The notes beneath the pieces are model-generated. The model ran no database searches. It saw only the letters and a list, made by a program, of their open reading frames with translations, and was not told the DNA's origin. A stretch of DNA of 64,000 nt, taken from Candidatus Collierbacteria bacterium (GTDB taxonomy: Bacteria; Patescibacteriota; Microgenomatia; UBA1400; JACPES01). The stretch lies in assembly GCA_016219325.1 (NCBI GenBank), contig JACRNH010000014.1, positions 132 through 64,131 of the forward strand. Reading direction: 5' to 3'. The translations under genes and the position numbers were made by a program. Of this stretch, positions 271 through 58,415 are shown piece after piece; position 1 is the stretch's first letter, and each line of letters starts with the position of its first letter.

Positions 271-1902
271 ATGGAAAATTGGAATTGGACAAAACTTCTT
301 TTAATTTTTAGTTTTCTAATCTTTTTAGGATCGCTGCTTTTACGCCAAGAAACGGCAATAACGCAGGATTTGGGAAGACATTTAAGATTGGGAGAAATGA
401 TTACCGCCGATGGAGAAGCCGGAAAGTGCGCTCTTTATTCAAATTGCCTGACGTACACTTATCCTGATTATCCGTTTATAAATCATCACTGGGGATCGGA
501 AGTAATTTTCTATCTTGTCCATAAATGGTCAGGCTTTTCCGGAATTATTGTTTTTAAAACAATTATTCTGGGATTGACGTTTATAGTTACACTTCTCCAT
601 TCGCTAGAACTCAATAAAGGCCCGGCCTTTTTAAAAAGGCCGGGCCTTTTATGGCTAGCAATTGCTGTTAGTCTTGTTTTTTTCTCCGTCCAAATGATGG
701 CGGACAGGCTAACTACCCGCCCGGAAATTTTTGGATATTTCTTGTTTTCTATCTTATTCTGGATGCTGAATTCATCGTTTCCAAAACGTCTTTTATCATT
801 GTTTCTTGTTTTCTGCTCATTGCTCATTATTCTGTGGGTGAATTTACACATTTCGTTTGTGTTTGGATTGATACTTATCTGGATTTGGGCAGGGAGCCAA
901 TTATTAGCGTCATTGCGAGGGAGCGACAGCGACCGCGGCAATCTCGGAGATCGCCACGCCCCGCCGCGTCGAACGCGGCTGGGGCTCGCGATGACGGCAA
1001 CGGCGGCGGCGTCTACTATGGCAACTATTTTCAATCCTTCCGGACTCCGCGGAACGCTGATGCCGCTATCAATACTCAAAGACTACGGCTACACCATTGT
1101 GGAAAATATGAATCCTTTTTTCTTGACAGCATTTAAACCACAACCAGAATACTGGATATACATTATATTGTTGATAACGACTATTTTCTTATTTCTTTTT
1201 TCCTCCGCCAAAAAAAATCCTTTTCACCTGCTAACCTTTTTAACTTTTAGCCTTTTCCCTCTTATTGCCGTCCGCCACCTGCCATTTTTTGCGCTTGTAA
1301 TTTCACCTATCTTGGCCCCGTTACTCTTTAGCGTCTTAAAAGGCCCGGCCTTGCTTAGCAAGGCCGGGCCTTATGATGCCCATATTCCGATACTAACTAT
1401 TGGCTTCTTATTATTGACAGCATTTACCAATCCCATTCCTCTTGCCTACGCCAAACTCCCGCCGATAAATCTATCCACAGATTCCCGCCACGATCAGGCC
1501 ATCGAGTTTGTTAAACAAAATAATTTTCAGGGACCGATGTGGAATAACTACGACATCGGCAGTTTCCTGGAATGGGCGATTCCGGAACACAAGACTTTCG
1601 TTGACGGAAGACCTGAAGCATTCCCTGTTGGGTTTTTCAAAAAGACGTATATTCCGATGCAGGAATCGCAGAAAAAGTGGGACGAGGTAACCGCGGCAAA
1701 CGATATCCAGTGGGTGTTTGCGGCTCTGACAGACGCCACTCCGTGGTTTACCAAATGGTGGCAGATGATCCAAAATCATCAGGGTTGGAAGATTGTATAC
1801 ATTGATAATTACAGCACAATTCTGATCCGGACCAACGGCAAAAACAATTTAATTGAACCACAGGGAAAAGCTCGATTATTAAAAACCCTCAATTCGGATT
1901 GA
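271..1902 (+). CDS. Polytopic integral membrane protein (hypothetical). Carries two in-frame 33-34-nt palindromic inserts and a GC-rich insert.
   Basis: 543-aa ORF with many hydrophobic helices. Hairpin inserts at 616-649 and 1340-1372 and a GC-rich patch at about 897-1020 all lie in frame. Confidence 0.6.
   Translation: MENWNWTKLLLIFSFLIFLGSLLLRQETAITQDLGRHLRLGEMITADGEAGKCALYSNCLTYTYPDYPFINHHWGSEVIFYLVHKWSGFSGIIVFKTIILGLTFIVTLLHSLELNKGPAFLKRPGLLWLAIAVSLVFFSVQMMADRLTTRPEIFGYFLFSILFWMLNSSFPKRLLSLFLVFCSLLIILWVNLHISFVFGLILIWIWAGSQLLASLRGSDSDRGNLGDRHAPPRRTRLGLAMTATAAASTMATIFNPSGLRGTLMPLSILKDYGYTIVENMNPFFLTAFKPQPEYWIYIILLITTIFLFLFSSAKKNPFHLLTFLTFSLFPLIAVRHLPFFALVISPILAPLLFSVLKGPALLSKAGPYDAHIPILTIGFLLLTAFTNPIPLAYAKLPPINLSTDSRHDQAIEFVKQNNFQGPMWNNYDIGSFLEWAIPEHKTFVDGRPEAFPVGFFKKTYIPMQESQKKWDEVTAANDIQWVFAALTDATPWFTKWWQMIQNHQGWKIVYIDNYSTILIRTNGKNNLIEPQGKARLLKTLNSD
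616..649. repeat. Intragenic palindromic element, copy 1 (AAAGGCCCGGCCTTT-ttaa-AAAGGCCGGGCCTTT)
   Basis: Perfect 15-bp inverted repeat with a 4-nt spacer. Translated in-frame as KGPAFLKRPGLL. Confidence 0.8.
1340..1372. repeat. Intragenic palindromic element, copy 2 (AAGGCCCGGCCTTGC-tta-GCAAGGCCGGGCCTT)
   Basis: Perfect 15-bp stem with a 3-nt loop. 33 nt, in-frame (KGPALLSKAGP). Confidence 0.8.
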
Positions 1903-2651: not shown

Positions 2652-3305
2652 ATGAATAGACTTCTGAAGACGATCGGTTTTATTCTTCTGCTTGTTGTAA
2701 TCTCCGCCGGCGGAATATTTATCCTGACCCGGAAACCGAAAGCGGTTGAAGGGATAGAAACATTTCCCAGTCAGGGCCGCAATCACGTCCCTGCCGGAAC
2801 TATCGGAGAATATAACAGCAATCCGCCTACTTCGGGACCGCACTACACCCAATGGGAAAAACCGGGAATATACAATAAGGTTCTTCCGGACGGAAACTTA
2901 ATTCACTCGTTGGAACACGGATATGTGATAATTTCGTACGATTGTACGAAATTATCAAACTCAAAACTCAAAACTCAAAGTTCAAAATTTTGGAAGGTTT
3001 TTGCGCATGAAACGGAAGAGATCCATGAAGAACCTCCGGCCACAGATAGCGCTGATGTCAAACCAGATAATATTTCCGGATGGAAAGATAGTCCTGATTG
3101 CCAAAAATTGGTTGATCAGATAAAACAAGTTACCAAGAAAACCGGCATGGACAGGCTGATCGTAGTTCCCAGGCCAAATCTTGATGTCCCAATAGCTATG
3201 ACGTCCTGGACAAAATTGTTGAAACTGAACGACGTCAACGAAGACAAAATTATTAATTTCGTTAAAGAATTCCGGAACAAAGGTCCTGAAAAAACCATGG
3301 AATGA
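2652..3305 (+). CDS. DUF3105 family protein, membrane-anchored
   Basis: PPTSGPH and HSLEHGYVIISY motifs with an N-terminal TM. Contains a heptamer tandem repeat at 2957-2988. Confidence 0.6.
   Translation: MNRLLKTIGFILLLVVISAGGIFILTRKPKAVEGIETFPSQGRNHVPAGTIGEYNSNPPTSGPHYTQWEKPGIYNKVLPDGNLIHSLEHGYVIISYDCTKLSNSKLKTQSSKFWKVFAHETEEIHEEPPATDSADVKPDNISGWKDSPDCQKLVDQIKQVTKKTGMDRLIVVPRPNLDVPIAMTSWTKLLKLNDVNEDKIINFVKEFRNKGPEKTME
2957..2988 (+). repeat. Heptanucleotide tandem repeat (AAACTCA x3 plus a variant) inside a CDS
   Basis: caaactcaaaactcaaaactcaaagttcaaaa, encoding SNSKLKTQSSKF. Confidence 0.75.
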
Positions 3306-3327: not shown

Positions 3328-3621
3328 TTATCCCAATTCTTTTTCCAGTTTGGAAATCTTAAGCATTCTAAGGATATTCCCGATTAAGACGAAAAGGGAG
3401 AATCCAACTCCGATTGCCAACAACACCAAAGGCAAGTTGGCCGGAATATTCGGCAGGAATTGGTAAAGGACCGGATAAAACATCAGGGCCATAAACACTA
3501 CAAGGATTACCAAAATTGCTTCCAAAGAATAAATAATCTTCTCTAGCCTCAACTGCTGAATCCTAAATTCAAGATTTGGTTTAACCTTAACCGCCGGAGT
3601 TGTAACTGTTTTTCTTGGCAC
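3328..3621 (-). CDS. Small membrane protein (hypothetical), last gene of the metal operon
   Basis: 97 aa with two hydrophobic helices, lying downstream of the ATPase on the same strand. Confidence 0.45.
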   Translation of the reverse strand: MPRKTVTTPAVKVKPNLEFRIQQLRLEKIIYSLEAILVILVVFMALMFYPVLYQFLPNIPANLPLVLLAIGVGFSLFVLIGNILRMLKISKLEKELG

Positions 3622-3671: not shown

Positions 3672-5771
3672 TTAGACCTCAAGCTTGACTTTTTTTAAGG
3701 CCATGGCGTTAATTACCACAATCACTGAAGACAGACTCATCAAAAACGCCCCTATTCCCGGTGTAAGTTGAAAGCCAAGCGGGATAAATAAGCCTGCAGC
3801 GGCCGGAATCGCCAAAACGTTATAGCCGGTAGCCCACAGTAAGTTTTCTATCATTTTCCGGTAGACTTTTCTGGAAAGGATAACCAGCCTGGCCACGTCC
3901 TCCGGATTGCTGCGGGTTAAAACTACGTCTCCTGATTCAACCGCGACGTCAGTCCCGGCCCCAATCGCCACTCCGGCATTGGCCTGTTTCAAGGCCGGGG
4001 CGTCATTAACGCCGTCTCCCACCATAATGACTATCTCGCCTTTATCCTGAAGGCTCTTAACATATTTATATTTATCGGCCGGTAAGACTTCAGCAAAAAC
4101 TGTATCCATCTCCAGCTCTTTACCCACGTCTTCTGCCACTTGGTGGTTATCTCCGGTAACCATGGCTGCTTTGACCCCTAATCGGTGCAAGCTTTTTATG
4201 GCAGATATTGATTCGGGCTTGATTTGATCGGACAAAGAGATTGTCCCCAAAATTTGTTTCCCGTCGGCAACAAATACTGTCGTTCCCCCACCGTCTTCTC
4301 CATTTACCGAAAGCCCTTTTTCTTTCATTAATCTGAAATTGCCAATCGTATATTTAATTTTCCCAACAGTGCCCTCTATTCCTTTCCCAGCCAAATTTTT
4401 AAAATTGACAACGGACTGAAGAGATACGCCTTTTTGTTTGGCATATTTGACGATTGACAGGCCGATAACGTGAGAGGAATGGACTTCTAGGGAGGCTGCT
4501 ATTTCAATTAAGGCCTGGCCTTGCAAAGCAAGGCCAGGCCTTTTAAGACTTACGATTTTAGTCACCCCGAACTCCCCCTTCGTCAATGTTCCGGTCTTGT
4601 CAAAAATCACATAAGTAGCTTTTTTAATTACCTCTAATTTTCCTAAATCTTTCAGAAAAACGCCGTTTTTAACGGCTAAAGTTGTGGCAATAGTTGAGAC
4701 AGTTGGGATAGCCAAGCCTAAAGCATGCGGACAGGCAATTACCAAAACCGTAATCGCCAAAGTCATGGCAAAAACAAACGGCTGTCCGGCTACCGCCGAC
4801 CAAAAGAACAAAGAAAATAATCCGACCGTCAAGGCGGTAAGGGTCAAAATTCCGGCGGCCTTGTCGGCGATCTTTTGGGCGGTAGGCTTGGTTTTTTGGG
4901 CTTGAGCGATAAGGTTTTTAATCTGGCCTATAGTTGAATTTTCTCCGACTTTATCCAACTTGACTTCCACCGAACCATCAAGACAAATAGCTCCGGCTAT
5001 CGCTCTATCGCCGGTTTTTTTGGATACCGGCCGTGATTCGCCGCTGATATGAGATTCATTAAAGTTGACCGCGCCCTTAATGATTATTCCGTCGGCCGGG
5101 ACTTTCTCCCCAGGCTTGACCAATACTACGTCCCCCTCTTTCAACTCTTCAATATCTATATCTTCTGTTAATTCTGAATTCTGAATTCTGAATTCTGAAT
5201 TAATTATGCGGTGGGCCTGTTTCGGCAACAACTTTGCCACTTCTTTCAGAGCATCGCCGGCTGCAGTAGAAGATTTAGCTTCTAAGAAATGGCCGAATAA
5301 CAACACCCAAATCAGAGTAGATATTTCCAGATAAAATTCGGTTTTAATCGCCGGAATAAATGTTGAAGCGGCGGAAAATAAGTACCCTGAACCGACGGCC
5401 AATGATACTAAAGTCATCATCCCGTATTTCTTAGCCATCCATTCATGGCGGGCATGCTGGAAGAAAATCAGGCTGAAGTAGAAAATGACGGTGGCAGCTG
5501 CAAATTCTAAATAGTTCCGACCGGCGAAATCCGGCATTCCCAGAAACCTAATACCCAGTTTGCTGGTTATCAACAACGGAACCAATAACAAAGTGACGAT
5601 TAAAAATCGTCTCAAAAAATCTCCGGCGGCTTGCGGCCCGGCCATCATGGCGGCGTGATCATGAGATTCATTAGCCTCATGCTGCGGAACTAAATCCATT
5701 CCCCCGCACTTGGGACATTTTCCGGGATGATCCTGTTTAATCTCGGGGTGCATGGGACATGTATAAATCAT
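3672..5771 (-). CDS. copB: Heavy-metal translocating P1B-type ATPase with CPH motif (CopB-like) and an N-terminal CPMHPE...CPKCGM metal-binding domain
   Basis: DKTGTLT, GDGVNDAPAL and CPH (VIACPHALGLAIP) motifs are present. The N-terminus reads TCPMHPEI...GKCPKCGM. Eight TM-like segments. Confidence 0.9.
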   Translation of the reverse strand: MIYTCPMHPEIKQDHPGKCPKCGGMDLVPQHEANESHDHAAMMAGPQAAGDFLRRFLIVTLLLVPLLITSKLGIRFLGMPDFAGRNYLEFAAATVIFYFSLIFFQHARHEWMAKKYGMMTLVSLAVGSGYLFSAASTFIPAIKTEFYLEISTLIWVLLFGHFLEAKSSTAAGDALKEVAKLLPKQAHRIINSEFRIQNSELTEDIDIEELKEGDVVLVKPGEKVPADGIIIKGAVNFNESHISGESRPVSKKTGDRAIAGAICLDGSVEVKLDKVGENSTIGQIKNLIAQAQKTKPTAQKIADKAAGILTLTALTVGLFSLFFWSAVAGQPFVFAMTLAITVLVIACPHALGLAIPTVSTIATTLAVKNGVFLKDLGKLEVIKKATYVIFDKTGTLTKGEFGVTKIVSLKRPGLALQGQALIEIAASLEVHSSHVIGLSIVKYAKQKGVSLQSVVNFKNLAGKGIEGTVGKIKYTIGNFRLMKEKGLSVNGEDGGGTTVFVADGKQILGTISLSDQIKPESISAIKSLHRLGVKAAMVTGDNHQVAEDVGKELEMDTVFAEVLPADKYKYVKSLQDKGEIVIMVGDGVNDAPALKQANAGVAIGAGTDVAVESGDVVLTRSNPEDVARLVILSRKVYRKMIENLLWATGYNVLAIPAAAGLFIPLGFQLTPGIGAFLMSLSSVIVVINAMALKKVKLEV
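4510..4542. repeat. Intragenic palindromic element, copy 3 (AAGGCCTGGCCTTGC-aaa-GCAAGGCCAGGCCTT) within copB
   Basis: Perfect 15-bp stem with a 3-nt loop. 33 nt, in frame (LKRPGLALQGQAL on the minus strand). Confidence 0.8.
5171..5203 (-). repeat. Heptanucleotide tandem repeat (GAATTCT x about 4.4) in-frame within copB
   Basis: attctgaattctgaattctgaattctgaatt on the plus strand; the gene strand encodes INSEFRIQNSE. Confidence 0.85.
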
Positions 5772-39088: not shown

Positions 39089-39178
39089 TAACTATATAGT
39101 TACAAGTGACTATATGTAACTATAAAAGAGGATGGATAACGAAAGGATTGTGCATTGATTGTGCATTGATTGTGCATC
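39088..39178. promoter_or_regulatory. Repeat-rich region upstream of serine recombinase 1
   Basis: Perfect 16-bp palindrome GTAACTATATAGTTAC at 39088-39103, an extra GTAACTATA copy at 39116-39124, and three 11-bp tandem repeats GATTGTGCATT at 39146-39178. Confidence 0.5.
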
Positions 39179-39260
39179 AAAAACTGAATAGAAACACAAT
39201 TTGCTTAATTAAATATAATTAGTTATAATTAAGTTTAATTAACTAATTTTAAGAAACAAA

Positions 39261-40850
39261 ATGAAAAATTGTTTCATCTATATAAGGGTTTCGACCGATA
39301 CGCAGGCAACTGAGGGTTACTCTTTGGACAACCAAAAAAGAGCTTGCAAAGAGTACGCAGTAAACAAGGAGTATCACCCAAAAGAGGTATTTGTTGACGA
39401 TGGAAAATCTGGGAGAACCGCCAATAGGCCTGAATTTCAGGAAATGTTGAAGAAATTGAAGGATAAACAGGCAGAGTGTGTCATCATCTACAAAATTGAC
39501 CGTTTTGCCCGTAATGTAACTGATTTTTCAAGGGTGAGAAAAGAATTCATTGAGGCGGGCATTGATTTTCTTTCAGTTATGGAGGGCGACCTAACCAATG
39601 GATCAAGCCTTATCTCGAACATCTTCGCCTCGGTCGCAGAATGGGAATCGGAAGTTAATAGTACCAGAACAATAGATGCTCTGGAACAAAAATTTCGAGG
39701 CGGTTGGCAGCCCACCCCACCGCCGATAGGTTATATGACAGTCGGAGAAAAGAATGAGAGAAAATCGTGCGAGCCAGACCCCTATACCGCTCCCATAATC
39801 AAAGAATTGTTTGAGCTCTACGCAACTGGCAACTACTCCCTATTGGAACTACAAGACTGGTTAAGTCAAAAAGATATTGTTTCAAAAAGCGGGACCATCA
39901 TTGGTCACTCAGTAATCAACAACATCTTGAGGAACCCTTTCTACTACGGTCTTATCCGTTGGCACGGAGTGTCAAAAATAGGTAAGCAGAAACCTATCCT
40001 CAAAAAGGATCTCTTTGACACCTGCCAATATGTTCTAGCTAAGCATCGAAGTTTTTTAATCAGGAAAAGGAAACACGATTTTCTGTTGCGGGGTTTTATA
40101 TTCTGTGACAATTGCGAACAACGATATACCGCCGAGTGGCATTATGATGCCCACAAGCTAAAAAACAGAGGTGGCAAAATTGGCTATTACCACTGTCAGA
40201 AAAGGGATAGGAATGGTTGTTCCGCTCCATATGTGGAAATTGAAGATTTACAGAAGCAAGTTGAAGATCAATTTAAGAAAATGCAGTTCTCGCAAAAGTT
40301 TATCGAGATGGTAGTCGTTAAGACTAAAGAGGCAATGACTGAAGGACGAAGTTATCTTAATAATCAACGAATGCAATTAGTGAACCGTAAGACATCGCTT
40401 GAAACAAAGCGAAACAAGCTTGAAGATTCGCTTCTTAACGAAGCTGTTGATAAAGATACCTACAAGAGGCTCCACGTCAAGATCCAAGACAAAATATACG
40501 CAATTAATGACAGGATTGAAGAACTTGAAGATAAGGCTAATATCGATACCAATCTAATTGAGGAAGTGCTGTCCTTTACAAGGGATATTTACAATACATA
40601 CAAGCAGTCACCCGCATTTCTTAAACGCCACTATTTACGGTTCTTCTTTGAGAAGCTGTATGTCAATAATTGTAAGATTTCTAAAATTGAACCGACCCCG
40701 ATTTTCGCGATACTACGGGAAAATCAAGAGGTTATAATAACGGATAATCAGCTCAAGAAATGGAATGAGTTTAGGACTCTAAGCCTTCTGGGTGAAGAAA
40801 TAGAATATTCAGAAATCATCATGGAACAAACAAGGGAGTTGCTTTCCTGA
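39261..40850 (+). CDS. Large serine recombinase (resolvase/invertase catalytic domain plus recombinase and zinc-ribbon domains)
   Basis: YIRVSTDTQ catalytic Ser motif with the conserved DRFAR motif, a Cys cluster (CDNCEQRY...CQKRD..GC) and a coiled-coil C-terminus. Confidence 0.9.
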   Translation: MKNCFIYIRVSTDTQATEGYSLDNQKRACKEYAVNKEYHPKEVFVDDGKSGRTANRPEFQEMLKKLKDKQAECVIIYKIDRFARNVTDFSRVRKEFIEAGIDFLSVMEGDLTNGSSLISNIFASVAEWESEVNSTRTIDALEQKFRGGWQPTPPPIGYMTVGEKNERKSCEPDPYTAPIIKELFELYATGNYSLLELQDWLSQKDIVSKSGTIIGHSVINNILRNPFYYGLIRWHGVSKIGKQKPILKKDLFDTCQYVLAKHRSFLIRKRKHDFLLRGFIFCDNCEQRYTAEWHYDAHKLKNRGGKIGYYHCQKRDRNGCSAPYVEIEDLQKQVEDQFKKMQFSQKFIEMVVVKTKEAMTEGRSYLNNQRMQLVNRKTSLETKRNKLEDSLLNEAVDKDTYKRLHVKIQDKIYAINDRIEELEDKANIDTNLIEEVLSFTRDIYNTYKQSPAFLKRHYLRFFFEKLYVNNCKISKIEPTPIFAILRENQEVIITDNQLKKWNEFRTLSLLGEEIEYSEIIMEQTRELLS

Positions 40851-50702: not shown

Positions 50703-52850
50703 ATGAATTGGCCAAAAATTGCCGGTGTCAGCTTCCTGATTTTATTTTCAGAGCTTTTGGTTATCAGGCTTTTGGGGACAGAAATCAGAATCTTTGCTTA
50801 CCTAGGAAATCTAACGCTTCTTATGATTTTCCTGGGATCCGGGATCGGAATGTACATTAAAAAAACCCTTCCCTTGTCATGGACCGCTACCGCTTTTTTC
50901 TTGCTGGCGGCTTTAGTTTCAACTTCATATATTTTGCGGACCCCCAGATTTGACGTTAAATTATTTTCCGGAATTTCGGAGTTATTGGCCCCATTGTCCG
51001 AATCGTATGTTTGGCAGTCCTTAAATACATTCAGTAAAACCGGAGCGGTTTTAGGATTAGGGCTGACTTTGGGAATATTGGGATTAACCGCTTTTGGATT
51101 CATGCCGTTGGGAAACTTATTGGGGAAATTATTGGCAAAAGATCCGCATCCGCTGCGGGCGTATTCAATTAATATCGCCGCCTCGCTATCGGGAATGTGG
51201 GCTTTGCAAATATTTTCACTGGGGCAGCTACCGCTGCTATTGGGGCTGACCCTAGTAATTTGGACGCTATTATTTTTGGAAGATAATCCGACTGCCAGAG
51301 CCGTTATTATGGCCGTGGCCGTTGCCACTATTGCCTTAACAATTCCTAAAACAGCCAATCAGCCATACGAAGGCCCGACGACTTTTTGGTCACCGTACCA
51401 AAAATTGACTTTGTCCCTAATCAATAAAACTAAAATCCAACAACCGCCGGGATATTATCTGGAAGTAAATAACGTCGGCTACATGGGCCTTCTTAATTTA
51501 GGCCCCGATCATCAGGCCACTGTTTCGGCCTGGGCCAAAAACAACGATGTTCTATTCCAAGACCAATACTTAATTCCCTACCGGTTTAAGCCTGATCCGG
51601 AGAACGTTCTGATTATCGGGGCCGGCGGCGGCAATGACGCTTACGGGGCGATCAGGGGCGGAGCCAAAAATGTGGACGCTGTGGAAATCGATCCGGTAAT
51701 AGTTAAAATCGGCAAAAAATATCATCCCAATCTTCCGTACCAAAATTCAAGAATTAATTTAGTTACCGCTGACGGCCGGGCGTTTATGGAAAAAACCAAG
51801 AAGCGCTACGATTTAATCGTCATGGGTCTGGCTGATTCTCATACTTTAAGTTCATCCCTGACCAATCTCCGGCTGGACCACTATTTATATACCAAGGAAA
51901 GTTTGGAGAAGGCCAAGCAACTGCTTAAACCCGACGGGATTTTAGTCTTAAGTTTTGAAGTTCCCCGCCGGTGGATCGGGCAAAGACTGTCCAAAACTGT
52001 TGCCGAAGTTTTTGGGGTTACTCCGCTGACTTTTGAAGTCAGAAGCGATGGGGCTTTCGGCTGGGGCGGATATTTCTTCGTGGCTTCCAAAGACCCCGAC
52101 CTGCTCCCGCGCATTCTTAACCAGAATCCTGATTTTGCCAACTTCATCAAAGAACACGAAAGAACTTTCCCCCCATTAACCATTAACTCATCAACTATTA
52201 ACTCATTGTCTGACGATTGGCCGTATTTATATCTAGACTCTCCCCGTTTACCGGTCCTTCATCTGATTATCGCCGGAATTGCCGCGATCGGACTTTTTTT
52301 AGGGAGGAAGATTATCTTTAAGGACACGAAATTTAACTGGCCGATGTTTTGGTGGGGAGCCGGATTTATGTTATTTGAATTTCAGAACATTACTAAATTC
52401 AGCCTGTTGTTCGGGTTGACATGGCAAACTAATATTATCGTGATTTCCGCGGCATTGATTATGATTCTAGGAGCAAATTGGTTGGTGGAAAGAAAAATGA
52501 TTTCTTCAGGGCTTATGTTTGTCGGACTGATGGCAACGCTGCTCATTCAGGCCGTTATCCCGATTAAATTATTTAATACCCTGCCGGATCTTCATAAGAT
52601 ATTGATTGCCGGGACAATTCTCAATCTCCCCTTTTTCTTCGGCGGAGCGGTTTTTTCCGGGTGGTTCAAAAACGCCAAAGACAAAAAGGCGGCTTTTGCC
52701 GGAAATTTATTGGGCAGCGCCGCCGGTGGTTTAATGGAAATGTTTTCATTTCTTTTAGGAATAAAGGCGATTATTTTTATGGCCGCGGCAATTTATGGAT
52801 TGGGATGGATAGCGGCTTCCGGGAAATTTGCTAAGATAATTAAACGATGA
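50703..52850 (+). CDS. Membrane-fused spermidine-synthase-like (polyamine aminopropyltransferase fold) protein
   Basis: TM-rich N- and C-terminal regions around LIIGAGGGNDAYGAI...NVDAVEIDPVIVK...YDLIVMGLADS. Confidence 0.7.
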   Translation: MNWPKIAGVSFLILFSELLVIRLLGTEIRIFAYLGNLTLLMIFLGSGIGMYIKKTLPLSWTATAFFLLAALVSTSYILRTPRFDVKLFSGISELLAPLSESYVWQSLNTFSKTGAVLGLGLTLGILGLTAFGFMPLGNLLGKLLAKDPHPLRAYSINIAASLSGMWALQIFSLGQLPLLLGLTLVIWTLLFLEDNPTARAVIMAVAVATIALTIPKTANQPYEGPTTFWSPYQKLTLSLINKTKIQQPPGYYLEVNNVGYMGLLNLGPDHQATVSAWAKNNDVLFQDQYLIPYRFKPDPENVLIIGAGGGNDAYGAIRGGAKNVDAVEIDPVIVKIGKKYHPNLPYQNSRINLVTADGRAFMEKTKKRYDLIVMGLADSHTLSSSLTNLRLDHYLYTKESLEKAKQLLKPDGILVLSFEVPRRWIGQRLSKTVAEVFGVTPLTFEVRSDGAFGWGGYFFVASKDPDLLPRILNQNPDFANFIKEHERTFPPLTINSSTINSLSDDWPYLYLDSPRLPVLHLIIAGIAAIGLFLGRKIIFKDTKFNWPMFWWGAGFMLFEFQNITKFSLLFGLTWQTNIIVISAALIMILGANWLVERKMISSGLMFVGLMATLLIQAVIPIKLFNTLPDLHKILIAGTILNLPFFFGGAVFSGWFKNAKDKKAAFAGNLLGSAAGGLMEMFSFLLGIKAIIFMAAAIYGLGWIAASGKFAKIIKR

Positions 52851-55749: not shown

Positions 55750-57546
55750 TCAGTCTTTTCGCACCAATTGTTTTAAACGGGCTGCCAGGTGGGACAAGGC
55801 CTGTGGCGGAAGCTTCCCGTCTTTGAGCTGGTTCCTGACCAATTCAGCCTCCAGATCGCGTAAAATCAAGCCTAATTCGCTTTTGGCTTCTTCCGAATCT
55901 TCGCCTTTTAACGGCTGAATTGCGGCCTCATCAAACAGCCCGATTAGTTCTGGCGGCAGCGATTGCCGGAAAATTTTAAAATCTCCGTTTTGAAGTTTAA
56001 TAAACTCTTTCAACAGCTCCATCAGTTTCCTCCGGCCAACCGGCTTCACCCAGTTTAAATCAAAATTCTCCGGCAATGGAAGCTTAAACTGAATTAATAG
56101 CCCCAATAAATAATGGCTCAAAATTTCCGCTCTGCTCATGGCGCTTTCATTACCAGCAGGAGCAACTAAGGATGGAGAAACGTGATTTTGTTTCCAGGCT
56201 GACATTTGGCGCCTGACGGCTTCATCCCTGACTCCCAATCTTTTCGCCAGAATACTCACCCAATGATCCTGTTCAATCGCGTTGCTTATTTCGGACAGCA
56301 ACGGCACCAAAACATCTCCTGCCTGACGTTTGGCCTCGGCTGTATCTTTTCCGAATTTTTCCAAAGTACTTTCGATAATCACCCCATAGGCATTTTTAGA
56401 CTTTTCAACCGATTCTCTCCATTTAGAAGGAGATGATTTGGCCAGTTCATCAGGGTCTTTTTCACTTTCCGGCAAAACTACCGCCCGCGAAGACAAGCTA
56501 TGATGCTCTAAAATCGGCAAGCTGCGGATTAGAGCTTCCTGGCCGGCTGAATCGGAGTCCAGGCAAACAACAACTTTTCTGCCGTAACGGCGGACCAATT
56601 TCACCTGGCCCGAAGTCAATGCCGTCCCTTTCACCGCAACTACATTTTTGATTCCGGCCTGCCAGGAGCTGATACAGTCAAATTCCCCTTCCACTAAAAC
56701 AGCCTCGCCTTTTTTGCGGATATCCTCATGATTTTCAAAAATTCCGAACAGATTTTTTGATTTGCGATAAACCGCGGTTTCCGGTGAATTAATATATTTG
56801 GCTTCTTTAATTTCCGGATCGAGCAAACGGCCGGCAAATCCTAAGATTTGCCCGCGGACGTCCCGCAAAGGAAACATCACCCGGCCGCGGAAACGGTCAT
56901 AGTAAGAATTCTGAATTCTGAATTCTGAATTCTGAATGGCGGAAGATCTGGCTTGTTTGTTTTTATTCAGTATTCGGTATTCAGTATTCGGTATTCTTTT
57001 TATTGCCAAGCCAGATTGCTCAATGTGTTCCGGCAGATAACCCTTTTTGGTTAAAAACTTAAACAGATTATCCCATTGGTTTGGAGAATAACCAATACAA
57101 AACGTCTCAATCGCAGATTTGGTGATATAGCGTGATTTTAAATATTCCCGGGCTTTTCCCCCGGCTTTATGTTTAGTTAAAATATAATGATAGAACTCCG
57201 CCGCCAAATGATTAATTTCAAAAATCTGTTTTTCAATTTGCTGCAACCGGTCGTCAACCGCCCGCCTTTCCAATTTAACTCCGGTTTTTTCGGCTAAAAA
57301 TTCCAGCGCTTCGACGAAGGTCATGCCGTCGTGCTTTTCCAAAAAAGTAAACACGTCGCCAGCCGCGCCGCAGCCGAAGCACTTAAAAATTCCCATTTCC
57401 GGGGAAACGGTAAAGCTGGGGGTTTTTTCAGAATGGAACGGACATAGGCCTAAAAATCGCCGGCCGCGCTGTTTCAAGGCAACTTTTTCGCCGATTATTT
57501 GCGCAATATCTACCCGGGATTTTATCTCCGCTACCTGATCGGACAT
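55750..57546 (-). CDS. dnaG: DNA primase DnaG with a repeat-encoded insertion in the linker
   Basis: Zinc-ribbon CPFHSEKTPSF...CFGCG and TOPRIM VLVEGEFDCIS motifs. Two heptamer arrays at 56907-56996 encode NTEYRIL...NSEFRIQNS. Confidence 0.9.
   Translation of the reverse strand: MSDQVAEIKSRVDIAQIIGEKVALKQRGRRFLGLCPFHSEKTPSFTVSPEMGIFKCFGCGAAGDVFTFLEKHDGMTFVEALEFLAEKTGVKLERRAVDDRLQQIEKQIFEINHLAAEFYHYILTKHKAGGKAREYLKSRYITKSAIETFCIGYSPNQWDNLFKFLTKKGYLPEHIEQSGLAIKRIPNTEYRILNKNKQARSSAIQNSEFRIQNSYYDRFRGRVMFPLRDVRGQILGFAGRLLDPEIKEAKYINSPETAVYRKSKNLFGIFENHEDIRKKGEAVLVEGEFDCISSWQAGIKNVVAVKGTALTSGQVKLVRRYGRKVVVCLDSDSAGQEALIRSLPILEHHSLSSRAVVLPESEKDPDELAKSSPSKWRESVEKSKNAYGVIIESTLEKFGKDTAEAKRQAGDVLVPLLSEISNAIEQDHWVSILAKRLGVRDEAVRRQMSAWKQNHVSPSLVAPAGNESAMSRAEILSHYLLGLLIQFKLPLPENFDLNWVKPVGRRKLMELLKEFIKLQNGDFKIFRQSLPPELIGLFDEAAIQPLKGEDSEEAKSELGLILRDLEAELVRNQLKDGKLPPQALSHLAARLKQLVRKD
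56907..56937 (-). repeat. Heptanucleotide tandem repeat (GAATTCT x about 4.4) in-frame within dnaG
   Basis: gaattctgaattctgaattctgaattctgaat, identical to the array in copB. Confidence 0.85.
56965..56996 (-). repeat. Heptanucleotide tandem repeat (ATTC[A/G]GT x about 4.5) in-frame within dnaG
   Basis: attcagtattcggtattcagtattcggtattc. The gene strand encodes NTEYRILN. Confidence 0.8.
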
Positions 57547-57596: not shown

Positions 57597-57902
57597 ATGA
57601 ATTACATCGCTTCCATTACCAGCCAGGGTCAAATTACAATCCCGAAACCGCTAAGGGATCAATTTGGTATTCTGGGCCAAGCCAAAGCGCATCTGGTTAA
57701 AAAGGGCGACAAAATTGAGCTAAAGCTCTATACGCCACATGATCTTGAATTTTGGTATGGAGCGCTAAAAAACAATCCTATAGTGAAAGCAAATAAAGGT
57801 AAACCGCTACAGCAAATTATTGAAGAAGAAAGCGCGGCTTTTGAAAAAGCTATCGCTGATAATGTGGCCGAAGAAATGGGATTGCCGCCGCTAAAAGAAT
57901 AA
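57597..57902 (+). CDS. vapB: AbrB/SpoVT-domain antitoxin (VapB/MazE-like)
   Basis: ITSQGQITIPKPLRDQFGI motif. Immediately upstream of the PIN gene. Confidence 0.7.
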   Translation: MNYIASITSQGQITIPKPLRDQFGILGQAKAHLVKKGDKIELKLYTPHDLEFWYGALKNNPIVKANKGKPLQQIIEEESAAFEKAIADNVAEEMGLPPLKE

Positions 57903-57903
57903 C

Positions 57904-58308
57904 ATGGAGAATTATCAGCTTGATACTAATGCTTTACTCCGATATCTAGCTCATGATATCCCCAGTAAATATCAAAAGGTCCGCTACCTATTCAACAAAG
58001 CGAAGAACGGGCAGGTAACGTTGAATATCTGCGAGCCTGTTTTTATTGAAACTGCGGTAATGTTAAAACAATATTTCAAGTTCCCAAAAGATAAGGTTGT
58101 TGACTTCCTGCATGATTTGCTTAACGCTTCTTATTTAAATATAGAAAATTCTTCCCGGCTGGCTCCGGCAATTGATATTTACTCGCAGAATTCCATCGAT
58201 TTAGTTGATGCGATTGTCCTAGTCCGCGCTTACATTAATAATCAACAAATTTTTACTTTTGACTCCAAATTATCATTATTGGCTTCGTCACGGGAAAAAG
58301 CAAATTAA
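57904..58308 (+). CDS. vapC: PIN-domain toxin (VapC family)
   Basis: 134 aa with QLDTNALL at the N-terminus and conserved acidic residues. Confidence 0.7.
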   Translation: MENYQLDTNALLRYLAHDIPSKYQKVRYLFNKAKNGQVTLNICEPVFIETAVMLKQYFKFPKDKVVDFLHDLLNASYLNIENSSRLAPAIDIYSQNSIDLVDAIVLVRAYINNQQIFTFDSKLSLLASSREKAN

Positions 58309-58329: not shown

Positions 58330-58415
58330 GGAGGAGTGTGCCGAATGGTAAGGCACCGCTCTCGAAAAGCGGCGGGCGCAAGCCCTTGCAGGTTCGATTC
58401 CTGTCTCCTCCGCCA
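58330..58415 (+). tRNA. tRNA-Ser(CGA), class II with a long variable arm
   Basis: GGAGGAG/CTCCTCC acceptor stem, 3-bp D-stem, CUCGAAA anticodon loop, GGGC-GCAA-GCCC variable arm, TTCGATT T-loop, and an encoded CCA. Confidence 0.85.

Follow-up and report, generated by a model that had tools for sequence, protein, structure and literature searches.

In-frame heptanucleotide arrays in copB and dnaG of a Collierbacteria genome: probable dispersed repeat elements tolerated in protein loops

Introduction

Why would the gene for a heavy-metal pump and the gene for DNA primase carry, on one contig and in frame, the same run of a seven-nucleotide repeat? The question arises from 64,000 nucleotides of Candidatus Collierbacteria bacterium DNA (contig JACRNH010000014.1, positions 132 to 64,131; hereafter the window, with a G+C content of 40.5%), in which a copB-type P-type ATPase gene and dnaG each contain about four and a half perfect copies of the heptamer GAATTCT. 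Bacteria of the candidate phyla radiation (CPR) have tiny genomes with scant intergenic space, and their housekeeping proteins carry unexplained extra segments. Herein we describe the anatomy and distribution of the two arrays, which probably represent dispersed heptanucleotide-repeat elements compatible with open reading frames (ORFs) and tolerated in permissive loops of Collierbacteria-like CPR genes.

Results

Two identical arrays and their reading frames

Tandem Repeats Finder (TRF) located a perfect (AATTCTG)x4.6 array at 5170-5201, within the minus-strand copB-type ORF, and a perfect (GAATTCT)x4.6 array at 56906-56937, within the minus-strand dnaG ORF, both with period 7 and 100% matches. 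A sequence-only reading of the window had pointed out the same pair, with coordinates shifted by 1-2 nt, and had described the two arrays as identical and equally oriented relative to their genes, which holds over a shared stretch of 31 nt (AATTCTG x4 + AAT). An arithmetic estimate puts the chance expectation for such an identical pair at ~4 × 10−10 in 64 kb. Each array is in frame on the coding strand of its host ORF, and both read ...NSEFRIQNSE.... Frame analysis also confirmed the proposed coding logic of the unit: whichever of its three frames is read, the AGAATTC repeat yields the cyclic heptapeptide NSEFRIQ, and the GAATTCT strand contains TGA in all three. That the residues are an in-frame insertion relative to homologues, as had likewise been claimed, agrees with the alignments and with the solved-structure comparisons for both CopB and DnaG.

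The pair belongs to a wider excess of period-7 repeats in the window. Three perfect arrays of at least three copies have period 7, periods 5-6 and 8-15 lack any such array, and period 4 has a single 12-nt perfect run, while four imperfect period-7 arrays were observed against 0.4 expected from dinucleotide shuffles. Period-7 arrays thus exceed chance, and all five of those in the window lie inside ORFs and comprise 4.4-4.7 units by TRF.

A solo array in a beta-hairpin loop of CopB

The first host gene (3672..5771, minus strand) encodes a 699-aa CopB-type heavy-metal P-type ATPase, as judged from its ORF, homologues, Pfam and PDB matches. Its product has a CPH motif and an N-terminal HMBD domain (Pfam PF19335, PF00122 and PF00702), matches CopA and CopB structures in PDB, and is 100% identical to an NCBI protein of Candidatus Collierbacteria bacterium named 'copper-translocating P-type ATPase'. 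The solo array, a perfect (CAGAATT)x4.6 at 5170-5201, accounts for the segment 5169..5204 on the minus strand, which is translated as residues 190-201, INSEFRIQNSEL. Opposite this segment, Archaeoglobus fulgidus CopA (7r0g) and 3j08 show an 8-residue gap. In an AlphaFold2 (AF2) model the segment lies between the paired strands E185-189 and E202-206, with a predicted local distance difference test score (pLDDT) below 50 at residues 193-200. As DNA, the solo array forms a weak self-hairpin (−10.4 kcal/mol).

The comparison of 120 CopB homologues separates two situations at this site. In homologues of at most ~71% identity the site is a short native turn, AHLKTKNGVKEVELTSLKEGD, whereas every close relative (76-86% identity) has a 7-residue-periodic peptide exactly there, including RTKDEGRRTKDG, KTENRKQKTENSN, QTENREQRTENRE, KQESGSRNQEAG and GVGSKKYGVRD, as well as KTENRKQ and QTENREQ repeats seen at the protein level. 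DNA of three relatives revealed other heptamer arrays at the site, namely (AAGGACG)5, (AAGGACG/AAGGATG)x4.6 and (AAGCAGG/AATCAGG)x5.4. Since the relatives' DNA has heptamer arrays there, the loop must already have borne an array in the common ancestor of this close clade, and the alternating 14-nt states look like intermediates of homogenization. The sequence-only reading had placed the insert correctly in the actuator-domain region, but its estimate of roughly 11 added residues is too high, the net gain being ~8 relative to 7r0g and to distant CPR homologues. Its view of the residues as inserted rather than ancestral is valid relative to distant homologues, although at the copB site the array is ancestral to the 76-86% identical clade, and its label of an essential gene is unsupported for copB.

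A 93-nt composite hairpin in DnaG

The second host gene is dnaG (DNA primase, 598 aa; 55750..57546, minus strand), identified from its ORF, homologues, PDB matches and AF2 model. Here the shared array turned out to be one half of a larger structure, as an inverted partner array 27 nt away at 56964-56997, overlooked in the earlier reading, completes a composite hairpin element of 93 nt, or 31 codons (56905..56997, minus strand), which is translated as residues 184-214, RIPNTEYRILNKNKQARSSAIQNSEFRIQNS. Its left (5′) arm (56964..56997, minus strand) consists of (GAATACC/GAATACT)x4.7 units with TRF periods of 7 and 14, reads IPNTEYRIL, and appears on the forward strand as TATTCAG/TATTCGG units. 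An A-rich loop (spacer) of 26 nt follows at 56938..56963 (minus strand), delimited by an alignment of 11 copies, and the right (3′) arm (56905..56937, minus strand; TRF and codon view) is the (CAGAATT)x4.6 array, of which 31 nt are identical to the copB array. The arms form imperfect inverted repeats with a predicted RNA fold of −22.7 kcal/mol (z −5.4), and other composite copies fold at z −5.5 to −5.9. The composite has a single open frame among its six, and the C-variant unit of the left arm supplies a CGA codon where a pure CTGA unit would place an in-frame TGA.

The insert occupies the loop between GLAI and YDRFRGR, which is hypervariable across homologues, and has no counterpart in the solved primases 5guj and 2au3. 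The AF2 model (mean pLDDT 89) puts it between the paired strands E181-183 and E215-217, at a pLDDT of 52-55. The same composite is found in DnaG genes of only 53-62% protein identity (L121-L123), while DnaGs 85% identical to that of the window lack the insert. Between the insert-bearing dnaG genes the insert DNA is 75-91% identical, in comparison to 55-62% for the rest of the gene and 34-43% for its third codon positions. The spacer is similar between dnaG orthologues and variable across copies in different genes. The relatedness of the loop among the dnaG composites implies descent from one old insertion, and hence arms that have either been long conserved or homogenized. The same dnaG site elsewhere holds inverted pairs of two other unit families, GAATGAM/ATTCAAC (L131) and AAGGATG/CCTTCAG-like (L132), which likewise fold as hairpins. 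The right arm of the window composite is pure CAGAATT, whereas other composite copies alternate CAGAATT and CAGTATT, and its hairpin is less stable than that of L137 (−22.7 vs −25.8 kcal/mol). An extended 45-aa insert-peptide query of a protein database returned short spurious ORFs only and missed even the DnaG of the window, making that search uninformative.

Several other features were noted around dnaG. Directly upstream lies a pair of genes for a MazE/AbrB-like antitoxin and a PIN-domain toxin (57597..58308, plus strand), beyond which is a tRNA gene (58330-58412); the same PIN pair adjoins dnaG in L122. The C-terminal region of the L123 dnaG has a further array, (CCCGACA)x4.7 at 1538-1572, and a YqeY-like gene nearby has (ATAACYG)x3 at 3889-3911, a relative of the Beggiatoaceae TAACTGA unit. 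Inteins (LAGLIDADG/Hint Pfam domains) occur in DnaG of relatives (P0129, P0136, P0263) and in SufB (L128 20113-22148), adding a different type of selfish in-frame insert to these genes.

Dispersal of composites and arrays in related genomes

A search of JGI metagenome contigs with the pattern CGAATRCYGAATA-N(10-40)-ATTCAGAATTCAG retrieved seven composite loci, six in long ORFs and one intergenic; the same pattern had no match in IMG/VR viral contigs. Besides dnaG, the hosts include the genes for ribosomal protein uL10 (two strains), an RluA-family pseudouridine synthase (PseudoU_synth_2), a ribonucleotide reductase (RNR barrel), a pilin-like protein and a membrane protein whose orthologue in the window is the product of ORF 271..1902 (from Pfam and alignment). 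Composites of 85-93 nt reside in at least six unrelated genes, and all of those in a coding sequence (CDS) use the sole open frame, RIPNTEYRI(L/P)NK...SEFSIQNS. Alignment of the 11 composites showed conserved arms, each of ~4.6-4.7 units, an A-rich start of the loop, a variable remainder of the loop and unrelated flanks.

Arrays in general are frequent in this lineage: 182 kb of Collierbacteria-like DNA contain 43 period-7 arrays of 32-42 nt, almost all in long ORFs. The arrays of the window are real, as the sequence-only reading held, but they are no isolated oddity, and its picture of a surprising microsatellite holds only in part. Unit families also recur between genes. The (AAGGACG) family is present in copB, in a gene for a SufC-like ABC ATPase and in dnaG; in the SufC-like gene (L126 12924-12945 and L134 1422-1458) the unit is reversed relative to copB and in frame (KSFVLRP...), and in the L132 dnaG insert it forms the left arm. 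L134 holds the composite as well as (AAGGACG) arrays, and the genome of L128 and L131 holds three different units.

Elements of another type share these sites. ORF 271..1902 of the window carries, at 908-996 on the plus strand, a GC-rich palindromic element (GTCATTGCGAG...CTCGCGATGAC; 67% G+C in a genome of ~40% G+C) that folds at −60 kcal/mol and is in frame, being translated as ASLRGSDSDRGNLGDRHAPPRRTRLGLAMT. In the L134 orthologue a heptamer composite is found instead, which marks an insertion hotspot common to unrelated elements.

Other in-frame inserts of relatives resemble translated GC-rich palindromic repeats (SLRATVGNVAISFSSE, RHPEPAEGGRRISSISEILRFAQNDG, SFLPSEASSLAPVKGDGAGSGR). Such inserts were seen in CopB (P0010, P0254), in DnaG (P0123, P0128, P0139) and in ORFs of L137 and L139; some adjoin heptamer arrays or sit within them, and several are in the YchF-like ORF of L139.

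Breadth across phyla, length and stability

The unit is not confined to CPR bacteria. (AATTCTG)2.7 was found at no fewer than 120 loci of GTDB species representatives, whose hosts, among the matches listed, include Nostoc and other cyanobacteria, Bacteroidota, Planctomycetota, Verrucomicrobiota, Clostridia, Acidobacteriota and CPR. Within this same set of matches, perfect (GAATTCT)n arrays measure 19-34 nt, with 125 of 129 at or below 34 nt, and 32 of the 129 are positioned well within ORFs of 150 aa or more. As many as 30 of these 32 have the NSEFRIQ orientation, in keeping with the earlier claim that a CDS can accommodate the repeat in one orientation only, and the remaining two, both 19 nt long, keep one frame free of stops. 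A similar length cap applies to other heptamer units in the GAATTCT-bearing loci. Across 895 kb from unit-carrying genomes, 183 arrays of at least three copies have period 7, ~129 of which are GAATTCT arrays present by construction, vs at most 16 at any other period. (AATTCTG)n also occurs in 23 IMG/VR viral contigs (L140-L162), several of which have two arrays, and 10 of these 27 arrays are in long ORFs.

In other phyla, arrays of variant heptamers often sit immediately beside (GAATTCT) arrays (L003 5214-5313, from a Bacteroidetes metagenome-assembled genome; L010, L097, L060), with AATTCCT, CGTATTC, CTGACCC, CTGACTC and TAATTCT among the flanking units. These neighboring variants suggest a turnover of units along one array.

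The expectation of the sequence-only reading that a 7-mer repeat should be slippage-prone was not borne out. Composite arms are nearly constant in unit number, orthologous copB arrays range only from 4.6 to 5.4 units, and within 10 clusters of CopB or DnaG proteins that share 90% identity or more (27 sequences from independent assemblies) the insert peptides are identical save for one substitution. Two fragmentary members of the CopB and DnaG clusters, P0246 and P0261, were considered as array frameshift alleles and rejected, as they stem from the L130 contig, which has indels in many genes and whose dnaG lacks the insert.

Discussion

A dispersed element filtered by the reading frame

We consider it probable that the arrays are ORF-compatible dispersed heptanucleotide-repeat elements for which loops of Collierbacteria-like CPR genes are permissive sites. 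The composites recur in frame between unrelated flanks, the copB and dnaG inserts lie in loops, and the copy number of the arrays is stable. The elements themselves would be selfish or neutral and would have spread by a copy-and-insert or conversion process, each array or arm being built of ~4.6-5.4 units over 32-38 nt. The copB copy would be a solo member at an old hotspot, where an array has presumably been retained since the close-clade ancestor and its unit turned over in situ by point mutation and intra-array homogenization, with the alternating 14-nt states as intermediates. The dnaG copy would be the right arm of a dispersed hairpin composed of (GAATACY)n, an A-rich loop and (CAGAATT/CAGTATT)n. 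Once inserted, such elements would be translated as disordered or hairpin-extending loops with no demonstrated role in the host protein. Selection would act only as a filter, passing inserts that bring no stop, have a length divisible by three and fall where the structure permits, and the single orientation and frame as well as the reuse of hotspots would be due to this filter. The pure CAGAATT right arm that equals the copB array fits homogenization or conversion toward a favored quasi-palindromic GAATTC unit, which is how we would explain the identity of the two arrays.

A number of points weigh against this explanation. Convergence on a common unit could account for the identity of the copB and dnaG arrays. 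An exclusive unit family for each genome is ruled out by L134 and by the genome of L128 and L131. No target-site duplication is evident at the borders of the 11 composite copies, nor was any insertion event seen between near-identical strains, mobility being deduced from dispersal only. No trans-acting enzyme was identified in the 64-kb window, where no transposase-directed search was made. The AF2 model of CopB is of modest confidence (mean pLDDT 69). Lastly, a neutral element would decay, and the long-kept sequence of the dnaG arms hints at constraint, and hence function, or at ongoing conversion.

A bolder version of the same explanation is tenable as a tentative proposal. The composite may be an active and undescribed tiny mobile element, an 85-95-nt hairpin with tandem-heptamer arms and a single stop-free frame that would be moved or homogenized by a trans-acting protein reading heptamer-periodic single-stranded or hairpin DNA, spreading within and between CPR genomes and possibly wider, given the presence of the unit in many phyla and in viral contigs. 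Solo arrays such as that in copB would then be half-elements or conversion products. If true, loops of essential proteins are being remodeled by a spreading element.

Alternative explanations

The strongest rival, which we regard as unlikely, holds that the arrays are microsatellites born in situ, by local slippage of chance heptamers that never moved, with copB and dnaG converging on a quasi-palindromic unit. Heptamers are the most abundant class of long simple sequence repeats (SSRs) in many bacteria and polymerase slippage has been put forward as their cause (Mrazek 2007, as summarized in PMC4679880 and PMC4692102), (GAATTCT)n is recurrent in many unrelated phyla, and the graded unit series at the copB site, with its 14-nt alternating intermediates, is what local evolution would leave behind. 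The right arm of the window dnaG composite even appears homogenized at the cost of pairing, given the lower stability of its hairpin than that of L137. However, the whole composite occurs in six or more unrelated genes whose flanks are unrelated as well, which is beyond the reach of local slippage, the length is capped near 5 units, unlike the broad spread at slippage-driven loci, and no copy-number variation was found in the 10 near-identical clusters.

Alternatively, the arrays could be functional cis-elements, i.e., DNA or mRNA binding sites or structures, or RNase or pausing sites, which form a network over housekeeping genes. In favor of this rather improbable scenario, the arms are far better conserved than the synonymous positions of the host gene, a hairpin is kept at the dnaG site across three unit families, the unit number is fixed, and regulatory roles have been proposed for the heptamer arrays of Geobacter and Beggiatoa (PMC2700814, PMC4679880), although these remain proposals in that literature. 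Close relatives nevertheless lack the dnaG insert or have an unrelated one at the same site, the copB site swaps its unit freely, the host genes have no evident functional link and the elements match no Rfam family.

Far less plausible still is a contingency function, in which changes of one unit would switch copB or dnaG on and off. A 7-nt unit does shift the frame, and neuO of E. coli K1 provides a precedent, as its (AAGACTC)n array of 3-53 units is translated into a 7-residue periodic peptide and acts as a phase switch (PMC13001214). The arrays described here resemble neuO in their in-frame heptad peptide and in that only a length divisible by three preserves the frame. They differ in being gene-internal, of only 4.6 units and invariant in copy number, whereas the neuO repeat is at the 5′ end and hypervariable; in addition, dnaG is essential, insert peptides are stable in the 10 near-identical clusters, arm length is constant in the 11 composites, and no frameshifted allele is attributable to the arrays. 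An artefact of assembly or adapters, which the sequence-only reading had itself raised as a concern, or of chimera formation is conceivable in principle, given two identical low-complexity 32-mers in one contig, but can be given almost no credence, considering that both host ORFs are intact and in frame, that the arrays are shorter than one read, and that homologous arrays and composites lie at the same codon positions in independent NCBI, ENA, JGI and Logan assemblies.

Relation to known repeats and implications

Heptamer repeats of comparable build have been described in several bacteria. In Geobacter metallireducens, 49 dispersed elements of four heptamers (GGACCGG) lie within and between genes, and 15 of 16 further sites consist of five MTYCTGA units (PMC2700814), a consensus that includes ATTCTGA, a rotation of the unit seen here. 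Beggiatoaceae have TAACTGA arrays of 2-6 units with the same orientation logic (PMC4679880). Together with the short tandemly repeated repetitive (STRR) sequences of cyanobacteria and the GGGAATC/GGGGAYT repeats of Xanthomonas and Nostoc, these are the SSR and STRR relatives of the arrays in the window, with which they have in common a 7-nt head-to-tail unit, ~4-5 units per array, many loci, either orientation, sometimes inverted pairs, and within ORFs only the stop-free orientation. The repeats of Xanthomonas, Nostoc and Beggiatoa are mostly intergenic, whereas the arrays described here are overwhelmingly intragenic, in frame and in housekeeping genes. Also unlike dispersed heptamer repeats are the loop hotspots with unit turnover, the existence of one two-arm hairpin family with a single open frame, and the CPR host.

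A second parallel is offered by the Rickettsia palindromic elements (RPEs; Ogata et al. 2000), which are in-frame palindromes in many unrelated, often essential genes, at fold-compatible sites and with a conserved peptide (PMC10969869). The composite is similarly hairpin-forming, in frame in several unrelated genes, conserved as a peptide and located in surface loops. RPEs, however, are ~100-150 bp long and have no tandem heptamers, whereas the arms of the composite are heptameric and its lineage is another. The likeness is architectural and functional only, and the solo copB array is no palindromic element in the RPE sense. With MITEs (transposable elements of the miniature inverted-repeat kind) and with repetitive extragenic palindromic (REP) sequences and bacterial interspersed mosaic elements (BIMEs), the composite shares small size, non-autonomy, hairpin formation, dispersal and, in the window copy, termini in the form of an inverted repeat (AAGAAT...ATTCTT), and it differs from them in that no target-site duplication was seen at the 11 copies, no parent IS or RAYT was identified in the 64 kb at hand, and its arms are tandem heptamers. 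REPs are, moreover, extragenic by definition. Our literature searches found no report of such heptamer elements in CPR bacteria. We conclude that the kind is known, both as dispersed heptamer elements and as in-frame palindromes, and that the CPR version, a hairpin at loop hotspots, is a new variant.

As this case shows, part of the extra sequence of CPR proteins is repeat DNA written in frame into permissive loops, and different lineages fill the same loops with different elements. The arrays are a concrete and countable marker for the spread of small repeats in reduced genomes, and they connect an old question, the abundance in bacteria of heptanucleotide repeats of 4-5 units, with a system whose selection for an open frame reveals insertion orientation and phase. 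For annotators and structure modelers, they are a warning that loop peptides such as NSEFRIQ, NTEYRIL or RTKDEGR are DNA-level features and not protein motifs.

Other arrays and features of the window

Two further period-7 arrays of the window were placed in genes. An (AAACTCA)x4.4 array at 2957-2987 on the plus strand (TRF) lies in frame in a DUF3105 gene (2652..3305; Pfam) and encodes SNSKLKTQSS. The protein segment past ISYDCTK is hypervariable and unalignable among four syntenic orthologues, and the DUF3105 genes of L128 (AAGAAAC) and L134 (GGCCCTT/AGCCCTT) hold arrays of other units whose peptides fall in the same segment. A degenerate CCATTAA-like array at 52173..52207 on the plus strand (TRF) is likewise in frame, reads PLTINSSTINSLS, and sits in ORF 50703..52850, whose product is a membrane protein that has a spermidine-synthase domain (Pfam). 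A candidate third GAATTCT-like copy at 3552-3570 (LEFRIQQ, in ORF 3328..3621) was rejected as a native peptide that is conserved in all syntenic orthologues. Rfam, at its gathering threshold, recognized one tRNA in the window and nothing else.

Finally, the window encodes a large serine recombinase (ORF 39261..40850; Resolvase, Recombinase and Zn_ribbon_recom domains), the sole recombinase noticed there, which nothing ties to the arrays. Just upstream of it, an intergenic segment at 39146-39242 contains three perfect tandem 11-mers (GATTGTGCATT) and an AT-rich array of 10-mers, and this segment together with the recombinase gene may represent the edge of an integrated element.

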